64,000 bases of DNA from Alphaproteobacteria bacterium (GCA_964291285.2 OZ219786.1:960001-1024000), one strand, 5' to 3'. Counted from the stretch's first letter, positions 10,916 to 33,632 are shown. Numbers and translations are program-made. Notes: generated by a model from the sequence alone, not told the origin.

Positions 10916-11809
10916 ATGGTCCACGATGTCCTGAGTGACGGTTTCCTGGAGGTCGTCGACCCGGACGCGGCGCCGGAAAAGATCGGCGGCGGCTTCGATT
11001 TCACCGAGGGGCCGGTCTGGCATCCGCGCGACAGGACCGTGGTCTTCTCCGACATGCCGGGCAACCACATGCGCGTGTGGACCGAGGCCGGCGGCGTCGC
11101 CACCTTCCGCAAGCCCAGCAACATGGCGAACGGCAATGCCTACGACCTCGAAGGCCGGCTCGTCACCTGCGAGCACGCCACCAGCCGGGTGACGCGCACG
11201 GGCCATGACGGCGGCATCGAGGTGCTCGCCAGCCACTATGACGGCAAGGAGCTCAACAGCCCGAACGACATCATCGTGGCTTCCGACGGCGCGATAATCT
11301 TCACCGATCCGGGCTTCGGCCGCATGGCCTATTACGGCGTCGAGCGCGAGTCCCAACTGGATTTCCGCGGCGTCTACCGGCTGGAAGCGGGCGGCGGAGG
11401 ACCGCGCCTGCTGGCCTCGGATTTCGACCAGCCGAACGGCCTCTGCCTCTCGCTCGACGAAAAGCGGCTCTGGATCAACGACACCATGCGCGGCCACATC
11501 CGCGTTTTCGATGTCGGTGCCGGCGGCGCGCTTTTCTCCGGCCGCATCTGGGCGGAGGTTGCAGGCGAGGGGCCGGGCCTGCCCGACGGCATGAAGATCG
11601 ACGCGGAGGAGCGGATCTATTGCACCGGCCCCGGCCCCGGTATCCATGTATTCGACCGCGACGCGCAACCGCTGGGCGTCATCCGCATCCCGGAAGGCTG
11701 CGCCAATTTCTGCTTCGGCGGCGAAGATATGCGCACCCTCTTCGCCACCGCCTCCACCTCCCTCTACCGCATCCCCCTGCGCGCGGCGGGGCCGGCATTG
11801 CGGTTCTGA
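10916..11809 (+). CDS. SMP-30/gluconolactonase family protein
   Basis: FTEGPVW, LNSPND, FTDP, PNGL, PDGMKID. Confidence 0.92.
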   Translation: MVHDVLSDGFLEVVDPDAAPEKIGGGFDFTEGPVWHPRDRTVVFSDMPGNHMRVWTEAGGVATFRKPSNMANGNAYDLEGRLVTCEHATSRVTRTGHDGGIEVLASHYDGKELNSPNDIIVASDGAIIFTDPGFGRMAYYGVERESQLDFRGVYRLEAGGGGPRLLASDFDQPNGLCLSLDEKRLWINDTMRGHIRVFDVGAGGALFSGRIWAEVAGEGPGLPDGMKIDAEERIYCTGPGPGIHVFDRDAQPLGVIRIPEGCANFCFGGEDMRTLFATASTSLYRIPLRAAGPALRF

Positions 11810-11816
11810 AGCAGAC

Positions 11817-11890
11817 CGTTGCGAGACGGCTCGCTGCAGGAGAGGTTGTGAACTGTCAATATATGTTCGCCAAACGAACTTCTGAAGGTT
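11817..11890 (+). pseudogene. Frameshifted C-terminal remnant of a PIN/VapC-like toxin
   Basis: ETARCRRGCELSI followed by ICSPNELL in another frame; resembles the C..G..P.ICTPEEL end of a PIN family. Lower GC than the flanks. Confidence 0.4.
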
Positions 11891-11895
11891 ACGTC

Positions 11896-12033
11896 ATGGC
11901 GGCCGGAAAATCCGACCCGGTGATTGCCGAACTCCGGGCCGTCAAGGACCCCTGCGCGGCGGAATTCGACTTCGATATCGACGCGATTTGCGACCATCTG
12001 GTTTCTGCAGAGAAAACTTCCGGACAGACTTAG
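11896..12033 (+). CDS. Small protein of the type found next to PIN toxins (putative antitoxin-like)
   Basis: MAAGKSDPVIAELRAVKD..AAEFDFDIDAI..HL...EK.SG resembles the DP(I/V)..E.R..R...A..F..D..AI pattern of such proteins. Confidence 0.45.
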   Translation: MAAGKSDPVIAELRAVKDPCAAEFDFDIDAICDHLVSAEKTSGQT

Positions 12034-12251
12034 GTCCCTTATCTTCCGCGCCGTGTCCTGGTGGAAGCGCCGCACGGCGAGTGATCGTGTCCGGGACGGC
12101 CCCGGTGAAGTCGAACAAAGCGTGGCCTTGACCGGCATTTGGCGGGGTTTCCCGATCGGTATTTGGCGCGGCCGGTGACCGGGGCCGGGGCGGGAGGCAG
12201 TCCCCCTCCAAAGTCGCAAAGAATGAAAAAAATCTAATGATTTTGACTTTT

Positions 12252-12293
12252 GTTCGTGTTTTGATCTTGACATCTGGCGGATTGTGATATGAT
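12252..12293 (+). promoter_or_regulatory. Sigma70-type promoter with extended -10, preceded by a degenerate LexA box
   Basis: TTGACA 12267-12272, 15-nt spacer, TGnTATGAT 12285-12293. GTTC-N7-GATC at 12252-12266. AT-rich patch in GC-rich DNA. Confidence 0.6.
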
Positions 12294-12522
12294 GGTCCCC
12301 GGGGAAGCGGATCCGGAGCCGCGTCCCCGGGTGCCGCGCGGCCGAGCGGCGCTATTTCTGAAAACCCGTGAGAAGCCGACGGGAGACGTGCGCCCTCTGC
12401 CTCGCGCGCGCAATCAGGCGCGCGAACCGCGCCGGCGCCGACACGCGCCCGGGCAGGCGCGGGCGCCCGCGCAGGATACGCGCGGAAAAGGGACCCGCTC
12501 CCGGTCGGAGCAAGGAGGAACG
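12294..12522 (+). repeat. Conserved structured leader / candidate ncRNA, copy 1
   Basis: Shares ordered blocks with the reverse complement of 24484-24733, including 38 identical nt (12407-12444 = rc 24587-24624). Ends at RBS AAGGAGG + ATG 12523. Confidence 0.75.
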
Positions 12523-12538
12523 ATGACCGCAAAGCGCA

Positions 12539-12647
12539 ACCGTCACCCCGGCCGGAGCGGAGCGGAGAGCCGGGGTCCATCCTCCGCCCTCTCTACCGGG
12601 CTGCAACGGTCAGGGATGGGCCCCGGCTCCGGGGCCGGGGCGACGGT
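12539..12647. repeat. Alphaproteobacterial REP/RPE-like palindromic element
   Basis: Outer inverted repeat ACCGTCACCCCGGCC/GGCCGGGGCGACGGT; inner inverted repeat GAGCCGGGGTCCATCC/GGATGGGCCCCGGCTC. Confidence 0.7.
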
Positions 12648-12731
12648 GAACGCAAGACACAGAAGGAGACCGAAGAGTGGATGACTTCATGCCGGAAACG
12701 GCTACAGCATATAAACCCTGCGCATGGAAAA

Positions 12732-12801
12732 CATGACACTTCATGACATGTTGCGCAGTGTCCTGCGGGGCCCGCATGACAAAACATGACATCTCATGAC
12801 A
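12732..12801 (+). repeat. CATGACA direct-repeat array, 10-bp period
   Basis: CATGACA at 12732, 12742, 12775, 12785 and 12795. Confidence 0.85.
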
Positions 12802-12849
12802 TCGGCCGGGGAGGCGCGGCGCGTCCGCATTGCGGTCCTGCCGCTTTGT

Positions 12850-13881
12850 TCAGCGGTCGTCGGGCCAGGTGTCGGCGAGGCGGTAGCCGCGCGGCCAGGG
12901 GTCGTCGGGATCGACCATGATCTGGCGCGTGCCGGTGATCCAGGCGCGGCCGGCGAGCGAGGGCAGGATGGCCGGGCGGCCGCCCACCGTGGTCTCGCCC
13001 TCGATCAGGCAGTCGAAACGGGAATCGATCAGCGAGACGCCCACAAAGCTGTCACCCGCGCGGAGAACGCCCCTGGCGTGCAGCGTGGCGAGCCGGGCGG
13101 AGCAGCCGGTGCCGCAGGGCGAGCGGTCGATCTTGCCGGGGCGGATGGCGACCGCATTGCGGCCGTGAGGGATGCCGCCGCGGGTTTCGAGCGGGGCGGC
13201 GAACTGGCAGAAGGAGAGGTGCGCCCAGTCCGCCTGCTCGGGATGGCGGAAGCCGATCTGTTCGTTTGCGGCGCTGACGATGCGCATGCCGGTGACGGCG
13301 AGGTCGCGCGCCTCGTCGGGCCGGAGCACGAAGCCGAGCGCGGCCGCGTCCACGATGGCGTAGCTGTCGCCGCCATAGGCGGTATCGACCCGGAGCGTGC
13401 CGAAGCCCTCGACTTCGAGCGGCGCGTCGAGCCGGTCGGCGAAGGACGGGACATTGCGGATGCGCACCCGCTCGGCCTTGCCGTCCCGGCAGGCGGCGAC
13501 CGCCTCGACCAGCCCGCCCGGCGCCTCCAGCAGGAAGCGGGTCTCCGGTTCCTCCATCGCCACGATGCCGGTTTCCAGAGCCACGGTCGCGACGCACATC
13601 GCGTTGGAGCCGGACATGGGCGGCGTGTCCTCCGGTTCCATGACGATGAAGCCCATCGCCGCGGCCGGGTCCTTTGCCGGCACGAGCAGGTTCACATGGC
13701 GGAAAACGCCGCCGCGCGGCTCGTTCAGCACCACGTCGCGCAGCCAGCCGTCCCGCTCGATGAAGTTCCTCTGCTCCCAGAGCGTCGCCCCCGGCGGCGG
13801 CGCCACCCCGCCCACGATCACGTCCCCCACCTCGCCCTCGGCATGGCAGCCGACGACATGGATCAGCTGCGTCGTCCGCAT
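12850..13881 (-). CDS. Proline racemase / hydroxyproline epimerase family protein (Ser/Cys type)
   Basis: [31 protein letters not shown]. Confidence 0.88.
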
Positions 13882-23470: not shown

Positions 23471-23497
23471 TGTCATGGAATGTCATGATCTGTCATG
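23471..23497 (-). repeat. CATGACA direct-repeat array, 10-bp period
   Basis: TGTCATG at 23471, 23481 and 23491, overlapping the stop codon of the terS-like ORF. Confidence 0.85.
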
Positions 23498-24483
23498 TCC
23501 GGGGGCGAATTCGACGCTGTCGAACCGGTCGCCGCCCGCCGGTCCGGGTCGCCGGTCCAGTCCTCTTCCTCATCGCCGTCGCCGTCCCGGTCGCCGCTCC
23601 AGTCGTTGTCTTCGTCTTCGCCCCGCTCTTCCCGTTCGAGGCGGCTCTGCCTGCGCTCCTCGACCTGCTCCGGGGCCCAGGGGTCGTAGATGTCGTCGTA
23701 TCCGTTGCGGCGCTGGTAGAGCCAGTCATGTTCGGCGCCGTCGGCCCGGTCGTCGTCGGTGCTGTCCTCGTGGCCGGGCGCGGCGGCGGCGGCCCACGGG
23801 CAGTCTTCGTAGGTCTCCTCCGGCGGGTCGTCGGCCGGCGGCAGGTCGTTTGCCGGCGCGGGCGGGGGGCCGAAGCTCACGGGCAGGCGGGAGCGCTCCT
23901 CGACGGCCGCGGCGAGCCTGCGGGCGGCCTCCTCATGCGCGGCCCCGTCGAAGCCCTCCTGCGCCTCCATCTCCTCCCGTCGCTCGCGGTGGCGGGCGAG
24001 CGCTCGTTCGGCCCGGGCATGGCCGCTGCGCACGGCGTCTGCGAGCGGTCCGGGTTCGGTGCCGGTCTCCTGCGCCTCGCCCGCTTCGATCTCGCCGAAC
24101 TCGTCCTCGTGCGGCAGCGGCCAGAGGCGGGCCCGGTTCGCGCCGGCCGGACTGACAAGCCCGGCGATCTCGGCCTGGAAGCGCAGCACCCGGAGCATCA
24201 TGTAAGCCGAGCCGCTGGCGACGGCGGCGTCCCAGGCCTGCTCCGAGCGGGCGAGCAGGATGCGGGCCTCGTCGCGTTCGGTGCGCTTCCAGGACAGGCG
24301 GATGCGGCGCACGCGCTCGACGATCCAGGGCCGCTCCAGCAGGGCGCATCCGGTCTGTCGTGCGGAGCGCTCGGCATAGCCGGCCTGCCTTGCAGCGTCT
24401 GCGGCATTGCCGGAGGCGGTGTAGTGGCGGCAGAAGGCTTCCTGGCGGGTGGAAAGCGCGACGGCGGGGTCGATGACGGGCAT
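23473..24483 (-). CDS. Orphan terminase small subunit-like HTH protein with a long acidic tail
   Basis: LSTRQEAFCRHY...GNAADAARQAGYAERSARQTG..LL..P.I matches the P22/PICI-type TerS N-terminus. RBS AAAGGAG. No other phage genes nearby. Confidence 0.72.
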   Translation of the reverse strand: MPVIDPAVALSTRQEAFCRHYTASGNAADAARQAGYAERSARQTGCALLERPWIVERVRRIRLSWKRTERDEARILLARSEQAWDAAVASGSAYMMLRVLRFQAEIAGLVSPAGANRARLWPLPHEDEFGEIEAGEAQETGTEPGPLADAVRSGHARAERALARHRERREEMEAQEGFDGAAHEEAARRLAAAVEERSRLPVSFGPPPAPANDLPPADDPPEETYEDCPWAAAAAPGHEDSTDDDRADGAEHDWLYQRRNGYDDIYDPWAPEQVEERRQSRLEREERGEDEDNDWSGDRDGDGDEEEDWTGDPDRRAATGSTASNSPPDMTDHDIP

Positions 24484-24733
24484 GGTGTGCGGCTCCTTTC
24501 GTTCCGCTGGCGTTCGACAGGCAGGCCCGGCGGGGAGCGACCCTTATTCGCGCGTATCCTGCGCGCGCCTGTGCCGGCGCGGGCGGGTGTCGGCGCCGGC
24601 GCGGTTCGCGCGCCTGATTGCGCGGGCGCGAGGCGGGCGCAGGGCACACCTCGCCTGTCGGCTGAATCGGGGTCGTTCCGCACCGGGCCGGCGCGGGCGG
24701 GAAGCGGCTCCGGATGCCTCCTCCCTCGCACCC
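24484..24733 (-). repeat. Conserved structured leader / candidate ncRNA, copy 2
   Basis: Same ordered blocks as 12294-12522; lies between the promoter and the terS-like start. Confidence 0.75.
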
Positions 24734-24760
24734 ATCATACCACAATTTCTGAAAATGCAA
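24734..24760 (-). promoter_or_regulatory. Sigma70-type promoter with extended -10
   Basis: Minus strand TTGCAT-15nt-TATGAT. ATTGTG(G/A)TATGATGG is shared with the copy-1 promoter. Confidence 0.6.
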
Positions 24761-24869
24761 GCCCCATTATAAGAATTATTACATAAACTTCAGGAACGAC
24801 TTGTTATATGCCTTCATCACCCGCTCTCGCCTCCGGGCAGAGGCGCCGGTGCCTCGTGCGGCCGCAGCC

Positions 24870-25064
24870 TCACTGCCGGAGGTCCCGGCCCGCCCTCCGG
24901 CCGCCGGCGCAGGCGTCTTCCGTCAACAGGCGAGCGTCGCGGCGGTCGCGGTAAATCGCCCCGCCGATGAGTTGCCTATCCCTGAAATCGCGCCGGAGTC
25001 TCCTGTCCTGCGTGTAGAGGAGCCGGACGCCGGTGGCGCGGGCGAGCGCGACGACATGCGGGTC
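24870..25064 (-). pseudogene. C-terminal fragment of a PIN-like protein
   Basis: DPHVVALARATGVRLLYTQDRRLRRDF fits PIN C-terminal motifs D.H..ALA...LL.T.D..L. The 5' part is replaced by AT-rich DNA at ~25070. Confidence 0.55.
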
Positions 25065-25295
25065 ACGTGAGTATATATATTTGGAGCATCCTCTGATCCA
25101 TATGGATCGACTGTTTGTCGACGACCAGCCATCGGCTTTGCCTCATTTCGTCGCCTTGGGCCCCAATCCGAGGTGACGGTTGGGATCTACAGACGAGACT
25201 GTTTTAATTCGAACGGCTCATGCTCTAAATTGCGTATCACGTATTCCAAATATCATTAATGATAGTCATGGAGAAAATATTGCCTCAGACCAAAG

Positions 25296-25580
25296 TCAGA
25301 AAACAAAAAAATATCGCCTTCTTCTTCCTTCACCCTGTGCATTTACTGTAGGGTATGCATGATGTTTATCTTGAAAATTCCTGATAAAAATATGCTCCAT
25401 CAGCGTTGGAATTGTATTTCTCCAAGGACGAACAAGACATACAATCATTCGGACACCTGCCAAATATCCATGAACTTTCATAGGAAGTTTGTAACCATAT
25501 AAAACTAGGTAATTTCTTCGCATATCGTCGAGAAACCGATTGCCGAAATCGTTTGTCTTGCCGATGTAAACCACTTCCAT
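25296..25580 (-). pseudogene. GIY-YIG-like nuclease, probably degenerate, in an AT-rich islet
   Basis: VVYIGKT..F..R and a later E..FI..F...H...P..N pattern; no clean N-terminus. Confidence 0.45.
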
Positions 25581-25706
25581 TATCTCGCCGCAAGAAATCG
25601 AGGTAGTCCACTGGCCGCCCTATCCTTTTGTTCCCCAGCAGAGAACTGCCAACATCGTTTGTGCCTCATTTATATAGCGCAACTCCCGATGACCTGCTTT
25701 CGTGGA

Positions 25707-26504
25707 CTATCCAGCATCCTCATTGTCTACGGCCCACGGCGGCGGGCGCTTTTCGTTGAAGGCGTCTATGCCGGCGCGGGCGGCGGGGGCTCGGAGGAGG
25801 GCGGCTATGGTGTGCGCGGCGTCGTCCAGGGTTTCGTTCACCGGGCGGTCGGAGGCGGAGATGACCAGGCGCTTGGCCTGCGCGACGGCCCCGGGCTCCG
25901 AGCGGCGGACCTGATCGAGCACCCCGGCCAGCGCCGAATCGGCGTCCTCCCGGCTGGCCGCGAGAATGTGGGCGAGGCCGTCGCGGAGCGCGTCGCGGCC
26001 GTCCAGTATGGTGCCGGTCGCGACCAGCCGCCGGGTCCAGCCCTCGCCCATGCGCCGCACGATGTGGGGGATGACCTGGGCCGGGATGAAGCCGGAGCGC
26101 GCCTCGGGCAGGCCGATCTTCGCGTCCTCGGTGACGATCACGACATCGGAGCAGCAGGCCATGCCGAGGCCGCCGCCCGTGCAGGCGCCCTCGACCACCG
26201 CGATGACGGCCTGCGGCAGCGCGTTCAGCAACTCCAGAACATGGCCCATCCTGCGATAGACGGGAAAGAGCGGGTCCGGATCCGCGGCCGGCGGGACGTC
26301 TCCCAGCATCGACATGTCGCCGCCGGCCGAGAACTGCCCGCCCTCGCCCCGCAGCACGACGGCGCGCGCGTCCGACGCCCCGGCTTCCCGAAAGGCGGCC
26401 AGCAGCGCGTCCATTGTCTCCTGGGTCAGCGCGTTGCGGCGCCCGGGCCGCGTCAGCCGGACATGAAGGGCGATTCCCTCCCGCTCGACCCGGACCGGGC
26501 TCAC
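25707..26504 (-). CDS. Enoyl-CoA hydratase/isomerase family
   Basis: RRNAL, FSAGGD, GGGLG, GLPE, FNEKRPPPW. Confidence 0.9.
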   Translation of the reverse strand: MSPVRVEREGIALHVRLTRPGRRNALTQETMDALLAAFREAGASDARAVVLRGEGGQFSAGGDMSMLGDVPPAADPDPLFPVYRRMGHVLELLNALPQAVIAVVEGACTGGGLGMACCSDVVIVTEDAKIGLPEARSGFIPAQVIPHIVRRMGEGWTRRLVATGTILDGRDALRDGLAHILAASREDADSALAGVLDQVRRSEPGAVAQAKRLVISASDRPVNETLDDAAHTIAALLRAPAARAGIDAFNEKRPPPWAVDNEDAG

Positions 26505-32464: not shown

Positions 32465-32541
32465 GGGTCCGTAGCTCAGGTGGTTAGAGCGCCGTCTTGA
32501 CATGGCGGAGGTCACAAGTTCAAGTCTTGTCGGACCCACCA
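32465..32541 (+). tRNA. tRNA-Val(GAC)
   Basis: Acceptor stem GGGTCCG/CGGACCC, D arm, anticodon arm CCGTC-TTGACAT-GGCGG, T loop GTTCAAG, encoded CCA. Confidence 0.95.
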
Positions 32542-33476: not shown

Positions 33477-33571
33477 GGAGACCGGCGGCGGGCGGACCCC
33501 TCGCCAACCCGGTCAGGTCCGGAAGGAAGCAGCCGTAACGAGTTTCCGGTCCGGGTCGCCTGCCGGCCTCC
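33477..33571 (+). ncRNA. ffs: SRP RNA (4.5S)
   Basis: CAGGTCCGGAAGGAAGCAGC core within a long hairpin (GGAG...CTCC), directly upstream of dnaX. Confidence 0.93.
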
Positions 33572-33632
33572 GCTTTCCTCCGAACGCACTCAACCTGATG
33601 ACGGCGCCGGGCTATGCGCTAGACTGCCGGCG

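Follow-up and report, generated by a model that had tools for sequence, protein, structure and literature searches.

What is the stretch at 12294-12522 (+) of the window, by which we mean the whole 64,000 nt analysed here (G000:C2:960001-1024000, from a genome of 6.13 Mb in 5 contigs with 68% G+C), and what keeps its hairpins alike in a second copy at 24727-24500 (-) while the sequence around them changes? The original prediction took the two stretches as a pair of leaders of a conserved structured RNA. Both stretches exist: their mean column identity is 79%, some 50 nt form a block that is identical between them and, as had been described, the linkers have indels; the likeness is far above chance. 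They are not a pair, however, but 2 of the 108 family members in this genome. An iterated nucleotide profile of the leader finds these 108 pieces at E <= 0.001, 95 of them with the 5' end and 84 close to full length; copy 2 as a BLAST query finds 44 places. The leader is part of a new repeat family, present at about 100 copies per genome, in uncultured sponge-associated Alphaproteobacteria.

How far does the family extend? A covariance model (R1), a check proposed with the original prediction, finds 86 leaders in this genome, and from 36 to at least 88 copies in each of 13 of the 16 sister genomes of the genus, with 0 matches in 20 genomes from two other genera of the family and order. Searching at the DNA level gives the same 13 of 16 sister genomes, plus weak matches in 2 of 24 that are more distant. 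All public carriers of the TerS-like gene that some units bear are, by their public records, uncultured Alphaproteobacteria or Rhodospirillaceae bins; one such record is labelled as coming from a sponge (Spongia), and the sequencing runs that contain the leader stretch are largely labelled sponge metagenomes. In distant genera, whose TerS-like proteins are 44-57% identical, the same promoter type and RBS are found, and the long leader is absent at 12 of 12 loci, where the order is promoter, about 30 nt, a GAAC-N6/7-GAA box and RBS. It would seem, then, that this genus has gained the leader as an extra module. The upstream flanks of the TerS-like gene in more distant MAG genera (L123-L141) contain further families of dense repeats, among them GTCGAAATGACGG-type repeats and the palindrome CCGTAGGGGAGGGTTTCAAACCCTCCCCTAC. 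In those parts of the literature that were open to full-text search, no published description of this repeat element was found.

A modular unit and its cargo

All units are built in one order. AT-rich DNA forms the left end; it is followed by a promoter of the extended -10 type, by the leader, about 230 nt long, and by an RBS; then comes a gene, which may be missing, and last the CATGACA heptamers. The leader always lies between promoter and RBS, and unit lengths run from 347 to 1608 nt. The left end is marked by a TTGTTC motif and AT-rich DNA some 60-90 nt upstream of a -35-like hexamer; homology from copy to copy reaches left to -55 nt from profile position 1. The 3' end is made of two to four CATGACA heptamers with a 10-nt period. 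A cluster of these lies on the same strand within 1.5 kb downstream in 76 of the 95 matches that have the 5' end, and of the 164 clusters in the genome (75 double, 84 triple and 5 quadruple) 89 are the first to be met downstream of a leader match.

In copy 1 the AT-rich left end occupies 12185..12266 (+), with TTGTTC at 12250-12255, and homology with subfamily B begins about here. The promoter-like site follows at 12267..12293 (+), with TTGACA at 12267-12272, a 15-nt spacer, TGn at 12285-12287 and TATGAT at 12288-12293. The leader opens with hairpin P1 (12298..12331, +), an inverted repeat that would form a 5'-terminal stem with an ATCCGGA apex; the arms of this palindrome, 12298-12314 and 12315-12331, are 17 nt long and 88% complementary with 0 nt between them, and it begins 5 nt after the -10 TATGAT. 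Hairpin P2 (12331..12352, +) pairs GUGCCGC with GCGGCGC around the loop GCGGCCGA. Further downstream a long-range helix (12388..12423, +), in which GUGCGCC at 12388-12394 pairs with GGCGCGC at 12417-12423, encloses a variable insert and AAUCA. Its 3' strand is common to the AATCAG hairpin (12405..12424, +; CGCGCGC-AATCAG-GCGCGCG), and the AGGATAC hairpin, P7, lies at 12467..12485 (+; CCGCGC-AGGATAC-GCGCGG). The RBS AAGGAGG, an ATG at 12523 and a 53-codon remnant of a class-B gene take up 12512..12684 (+); two and then three heptamers with 10-nt period, at 12732..12801 (+), form the 3' end of the unit. Copy 1 is most likely a relic whose gene has been lost. Its orthologue in the sister genome G007 (L045), beside the proline racemase gene, has the same promoter and leader, an intact class-B gene of 198 aa and CATGACA clusters.

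Copy 2 is a complete unit leading a TerS-like gene. The promoter-like site at 24734..24760 (-) has TTGCAT at 24760-24755, a 15-nt spacer, TGG, and TATGAT at 24739-24734. The 5' domain of the leader (24596..24733, -), with P1, P2 and the long-range helix, matches the covariance model at 118.5 bits. In its P1, at 24725-24699 (-), GGGAGGAGGC and GCCGCTTCCC flank the same ATCCGGA apex, so that both copies carry, directly after the -10, the 5' hairpin with different stems and a common apex that had first drawn attention to them. Just before the RBS stands GAACgccagcgGAAC (24501..24515, -), of the form GAAC-N7-GAAC. A TerS-like protein of 336 aa, with an N-terminal small-terminase-type HTH and an acidic tail, is encoded at 23473..24483 (-), and three CATGACA heptamers at 23471..23497 (-) overlap its stop codon. 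A prophage context was considered for both copies and is ruled out by the ordinary metabolic genes around them.

What do the units carry? Most leader copies have no intact gene downstream. The TerS-like gene is carried by 10 copies and encodes proteins of 329-347 aa, in which residues 11-72 match PF03592 at 42.7 bits (cut-off 26.1) over profile positions 2-63 of 141; a full-length match to PF03592 that includes the oligomerisation domain was not found. The protein also matches PHROG terminase small subunit families. Beyond the HTH it is helical or disordered and acidic, and its AlphaFold model, with a mean pLDDT of 59.7, is confident only at residues 10-60, the HTH. It is conserved among 312 close relatives, which their sources name 'terminase small subunit' and assign to uncultured Alphaproteobacteria. 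Neither a large terminase nor phage genes lie beside the TerS-like gene in the window, its neighbours being metabolic. Class-B cargo, an acidic protein about 200 aa long with MTATDPRP at its start and no family match, is present, whole or decayed, in about 8 copies. Elsewhere the leader is followed by a gene that, judged from its translation alone, resembles an isochorismatase or a DNA methylase. NCBIfam and PADLOC returned nothing for the cargo proteins.

The heptamers themselves affect how this DNA is annotated. CATGACA holds an ATG and a TGA, and the heptamers put both in all three frames; with the 10-nt period, many long ORFs on the element strand therefore start with MTFHD, MTSHD or similar inside the repeats. 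An example lies downstream of window 12775-12801. Several such ORFs have low third-position G+C and are probably not genes. The CATGACA repeats are thus a likely source of false N-terminal extensions in annotation.

Is the leader preceded by a promoter? The extended -10, TGnTATGAT, is conserved across the family when read by eye. A simple sigma-70 scan with a 16-18-nt spacer calls no promoter at either copy, because the TTGACA or TTGCAT hexamer lies 15 nt from TATGAT, outside that range; the promoter is a putative one, read by eye and from family conservation of the extended -10. In RNA-library contigs of the metatranscriptome X20, leader depth relative to unique flanks is similar to that in two DNA runs, and these contigs, with the same copy-number profile as the DNA runs, are indistinguishable from DNA carry-over. 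An exact GAAC-N7-GAAC, which we take to be the alphaproteobacterial LexA box consensus, lies 6 nt before the RBS in 10 of 10 TerS-bearing copies, and SOS control of these copies is a lead suggested by that sequence. The motif is not enriched genome-wide (111 occurrences against about 106 expected), and upstream of recA in this genome there is only GTTC-N7-ATTC. The recA upstream region (G000 C2:932541-932940) contains TGTTCCTGAAATATTCC, which resembles the left-end motif of the cassette (GTTCCTGAAGTTTATG in copy 2); a common regulator site or chance may account for the likeness.

Structure and constraint in the leader

Does the structure persist while the sequence changes, as had been predicted? 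It does for P1 and P2, which are kept by compensating base changes. Two alignments were used. The sequence-only alignment A3 holds 77 leaders, non-redundant at 90% identity, from 135 distinct ones in this genome and other genomes of the genus. In A3 the 10 pairs of the P1 core are 87.5% paired and 6 of the 10 are changed on both sides. Taken jointly, three helices show 45 both-side-changed cells as against 22.7 +/- 3.6 in shuffles, where 0 of 500 reach 45, and 8-22 with slid partners; the leader copies are related, so that such shuffle counts are not probabilities. The model-fitted alignment A5 holds 98 distinct sequences; it is fitted to, and leans towards, the given structure, and it misplaces P2 of some subfamilies. 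With that bias, A5 has 86.8% of cells paired in P1, with 7 of 10 pairs changed on both sides, and 76.9% in the outer 5 pairs of P2, with 5 of 5 so changed. Its covariation score of 0.191 compares with 0.147 +/- 0.004 in shuffles (0 of 500 reach 0.191) and 0.063-0.080 with slid partners, and its 78 both-side-changed cells with 38.4 +/- 5.1 in shuffles and 19-61 with slid partners. P1 keeps its pairing although the 98 sequences hold 77 distinct P1 stems. On the sense strand, G-U exceeds A-C by 76 to 40 in P1 and by 88 to 22 in P2. By eye, a hairpin stands at the place of P2 in every subfamily, with differing sequences: CCGCGCCG/CGGUGCGG, GUGCCGC/GCGGCGC, UCGCG/CGCGA and UUCU/AGAA.

The long-range helix is conserved in another manner. 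It is strongly kept and closes the invariant core, GUGCGCC/GGCGCGC being 98.7% paired in A5, with wobble changes only and 0 of 7 pairs changed on both sides; G-U exceeds A-C by 148 to 4, and 91 of the 148 are one constant U-G. P3, P6 and P8 were considered as conserved helices and rejected. P3 is poorly paired (60.3% of cells in A5, 1 of 4 pairs changed on both sides), with A-C (52) exceeding G-U (10), and P6 and P8 fold no better than shuffles, the mean segment folding z being -1.42 for P1, -1.10 for P2, -0.66 for P3, -0.23 for P6 and -0.45 for P8. ACCC and GGGU, invariant on both sides, could form an alternative closing helix that competes with P3. In copy 2, 24521-24549 and 24664-24692 are 79% complementary over 29 nt, joining the linker/P3 region (GACCCC) to the conserved GAAUAAGGGUC motif.

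The two hairpins with CGCGC stems, also part of the original prediction, are present in both window copies and fail as a structure of the family. The AATCAG hairpin is intact in 28 of 76 leaders, with uncompensated G-G (22), A-C (12) and G-G (10) on its 5' strand, and the GUGCGCC box upstream, with which its 3' strand can pair instead, is complete in 67 of 76; the core of the AGGATAC hairpin is intact in 36 of 74, and no both-side change occurs in it. The invariant core is rich in CG repeats, so that many registers and alternative helices are possible, and because it is both invariant and CG-repeat rich, covariation does not settle its fold. General methods recover little: RNAalifold on plain MAFFT alignments gives only the long-range helix or nothing useful, averaged pair probabilities recover only P1, and all-against-all column covariation is swamped by subfamily structure. 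Folds of the single sequences are modestly better than shuffles for both copies (z -2.75 and -3.34). A search of the whole window with Rfam 15 returned only tRNA and SRP RNA (a tRNA-Val (GAC) at 32465-32541 and a small SRP RNA at 33479-33572, both ordinary), and a sensitive scan of 12150-12900 gave best E values of 0.94-7.1, far below gathering scores, so the objection that the leader might belong to a known family does not apply.

P1 has two further properties. In every subfamily it keeps phase with the -10 box, and its apex is palindromic (TCCGGA, CCGCGCGG or CCATGG). The P1 palindrome of subfamily B extends 4 nt past the likely start site, and a palindrome at the level of DNA would account for this as well.

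Where along the leader, and in which copies, does selection act? Single-copy variants per 30 columns are spread rather evenly (9, 14, 10, 13, 14, 8, 12 and 6), while mean column entropy, 0.9-1.4 over the promoter and P1-P3, is down to 0.3-0.5 in the core. Across 14 genomes the core hardly varies from one subfamily to another, even where these differ by about 30% outside it. Even private mutations together with low core entropy indicate that the dispersed copies decay neutrally and that the core constraint acts on source copies. This pattern fits a proliferating element whose active copies need the leader, and argues against every copy being a working small-RNA gene.

Sites, ends and neighbours of the units

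Have the units moved? Copy 2 gives the clearest comparison. Its flanking genes, for an aldolase and an enoyl-CoA hydratase, are 2.3 kb apart in G000 (window 23422 to about 25725), and lie 24-46 nt apart in 9 sister genomes (G003, G004, G005, G008, G009, G011, G014, G015 and G016); G007 has a decayed version of the unit at the same site. The borders of the insert are not clean, as 37 nt are replaced, about 250 nt upstream of the promoter are included, and the G000 insert has an extra AT-rich 0.6-0.9 kb. Beside copy 2, window 24830-25725 begins with about 250 nt common to G007 with a short ORF remnant; beyond that, 25001-26000 is only 54% G+C, and the whole 24830-25725 block is missing from the 9 sister genomes. 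No paralogous empty site was found in the genome, and no terminal inverted repeats join the left end to the CATGACA end in either window copy. Many units stand at the same site in different genomes, which indicates vertical inheritance. At the copy 1 site (window 11300-13700) the flanking SMP-30/gluconolactonase-like and proline racemase genes are far apart in relatives, so that the repeat there lies at a rearrangement junction.

One locus has ends of another kind. A comparison of L109 (filled) with G000 C3 (empty) shows a 22-nt duplication, with inverted ends of its own 180 nt outside the cassette: the TerS cassette lies within a 1.68-kb insert (L109:1052-2735) with 20-nt inverted ends (GGGYAGTGTCSCRGTTTGAC), and the duplicated 22-nt target, at the empty site G000 C3:1259850-1259871, is palindromic. 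Inverted ends of this type were not found at any other locus compared.

The units favour the 3' side of genes. By crude gene calls the upstream neighbour is co-oriented with the unit in 41 cases and opposed in 14, and 20 units lie between convergent genes, 8 between divergent genes. Of the downstream neighbours, 34 read the same way as the unit and 34 the opposite way, where the genome background is 2318 co-oriented of 3509 adjacent pairs. Called genes lie within 600 nt on both sides in 50 of 76 units. One might think that the ATGs of the CATGACA repeats serve as a general supply of start codons for the next gene; the 34/34 orientation downstream and the convergent enrichment give this no support.

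The leader is itself a target of other elements. An IS110-family element, placed between GACAGGAGAG and the conserved GUGCG box and encoded on the strand opposite to the leader, splits leader copies at G000 C3:1276389-1277767, C1:640044-641408, C1:858809-860153, C2:876690-878083 and C2:1145076-1148614. The inserts are about 1.1 kb in four of these copies and 3.2 kb in one, and the encoded protein, of 343 aa, scores 85.4 bits with PF01548 and 72 bits with PF02371. This family seems to use the invariant core of the leader as its landing site. An IS4-like element, with ends CCCGACTTCCGCAACTCGG and a 599-aa protein matching DDE_Tnp_1 at 51 bits, lies in either orientation at one leader position (...GCGCGAAnnAG | GGG), in nine copies as judged by downstream ORFs; five junctions were read (G000 C1:257955, C3:941317, C3:685815, C3:831662 and C2:676626). 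As landing site of two IS families, the leader core would be a natural case for studying site-specific IS targeting.

What the leader may do

What role accounts for a leader of this kind? Beyond the family, its copy number, its spread through the genus, its modular build and its presence or absence at one site among sister genomes, all of them observed, we favour, with moderate confidence, the reading that the leader is a cis-acting 5' UTR module of a genus-specific, high-copy, proliferating cassette-like repeat element. The unit's own promoter would drive transcription of the leader, and the leader would act in cis as a 5' UTR. Standing at the extreme 5' end, P1 may protect the transcript from 5'-end-dependent decay, as 5' stem-loops such as that of ompA do, and the conserved core together with the hairpin before the RBS may set translation of the cargo gene.

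The main rival is a role at the level of DNA, in which the hairpins are folded single-strand DNA or palindromic protein sites, forming a cis-acting left end for movement, and transcription is incidental; the ends of IS200/IS605, the attC sites of integrons and transfer origins are analogues. We consider this unlikely, though it accounts for a good deal. Cargo-less copies keep the whole 330-nt left part and the CATGACA end, as DNA elements do in their non-autonomous derivatives, constraint on the core is confined to source copies, and the palindromic apex of P1, with the upstream extension in subfamily B, is what a DNA site might show; even the excess of G-U is compatible, as the G-T wobble is tolerated in same-strand single-strand DNA. 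Against it, no HUH, tyrosine or serine recombinase gene occurs in any cargo tested, there are no terminal inverted repeats, and a pure DNA site needs neither the phasing of P1 to the -10 nor the placement between promoter and RBS. An equally improbable reading is that the leader has no function of its own and hitch-hikes in a recently expanded repeat, its hairpins a product of GC-rich, (CG)n-rich DNA. The modest gain of single-sequence folds over shuffles, with none for P6 and P8, agrees with this, as do the many alternative helices that the CG-repeat core allows and the one helix that RNAalifold finds on the plain alignment. Yet the both-side changes in P1 and P2 lie above both controls, pairing is kept through 77 distinct P1 stems, and the near invariance of the core holds between otherwise divergent subfamilies.

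Might the leader instead act in trans, as an abundant small RNA made from some 100 promoters, or as a guide or scaffold RNA for a protein encoded in the cassette or elsewhere? About 100 promoter-bearing copies share the nearly invariant 50-nt core, and most of them have no gene to regulate, which would suit such a role. It is nevertheless rather less probable than either reading just given. Neither window copy has a sense-strand terminator after the leader, a variable 'guide' segment was not identified, and private mutations fall evenly across the dispersed copies, core included, which argues against selection on each copy. A guide or scaffold for the cargo protein, a role raised by the original prediction, is made unlikely by the cargo, which differs between copies and is without an enzyme domain: two or more unrelated small proteins stand behind the same leader, mostly there is no intact gene, and no nuclease or recombinase domain, RuvC and DEDD included, was found in any cargo protein tested. 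In the end the observation that started this work is confirmed, and its interpretation as a structured RNA is partly supported.

How does a cassette-like element with a 5' UTR module compare with known systems? Correia elements of Neisseria, considered here by general features, not by sequence, are also of high copy number and mostly intergenic, with shortened derivatives of gene-bearing units and an outward promoter. Unlike Correia-like MITEs, the present unit has no terminal inverted repeats and no defined target duplication; it is also much longer (347-1608 nt), has a conserved structured leader of about 230 nt and variable cargo, and its ends are asymmetric, an AT-rich promoter end facing phased CATGACA heptamers. 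Integron gene cassettes are likewise modular units with varying small genes and a conserved 3' end that resembles a recombination site, but here each unit has its own promoter and leader, the 3' end is a set of tandem direct heptamers and not an attC palindrome, and the units are dispersed, not arrayed, with no integrase found in linkage to them. The omega RNA of IscB/TnpB and the bridge RNA of IS110 are guide RNAs of mobile elements, and they too are structured non-coding RNAs of about 200 nt that lie 5' of a small gene in a multi-copy element. The cargo here, however, is an HTH or family-less protein, with no RuvC or DEDD domain and no Rfam match for the leader, and the IS110-family genes are separate opposite-strand insertions into the leader. 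Stabilising stem-loops of the ompA type share with P1 a stable hairpin at or near the predicted 5' end, P1 being kept by compensating changes; P1 differs in being just a part of a larger leader that is conserved as well, and a stabilising function for it is putative. The unit is without the hallmarks tested of MITEs (inverted ends), guide-RNA systems (a partner enzyme) or any Rfam family. Closest in kind are promoter-bearing non-autonomous repeats of the Correia type, gene cassettes, and 5' UTRs with a terminal stabilising hairpin.

The cargo raises a further comparison. Like phage small terminases (PF03592), the TerS-like protein has an N-terminal HTH that scores above the curated cut-off, and phased repeats at the 3' end of a gene recall phage pac or cos binding sites; it differs in that only the HTH part matches, no large terminase or phage genes adjoin, and there are 10 copies per genome. 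One may imagine a scheme in which the invariant core brings in a copying enzyme, either the host's or one encoded in trans, the TerS-like HTH protein and the phased CATGACA repeats act as a pac-like site by which the cassette and neighbouring DNA enter phage or gene-transfer-agent particles, and the GAAC-N7-GAAC box sets the timing, so that the leader would be an essential RNA or single-strand module of a self-spreading cassette without a recognisable transposase. We regard this scheme as very improbable, the least probable of the readings given here.

What does the family mean for the bacteria that carry it? The present work describes, on solid ground, a new repeat family, and gives partial support to its RNA structure. 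Should the leader prove to be a working RNA, it would represent an undescribed family with about 1000 copies in one genus of sponge symbionts, tied to a cassette element that places strong promoters at about 100 sites per genome. This would bear on how annotation, gene expression and rearrangements are read in these genomes.
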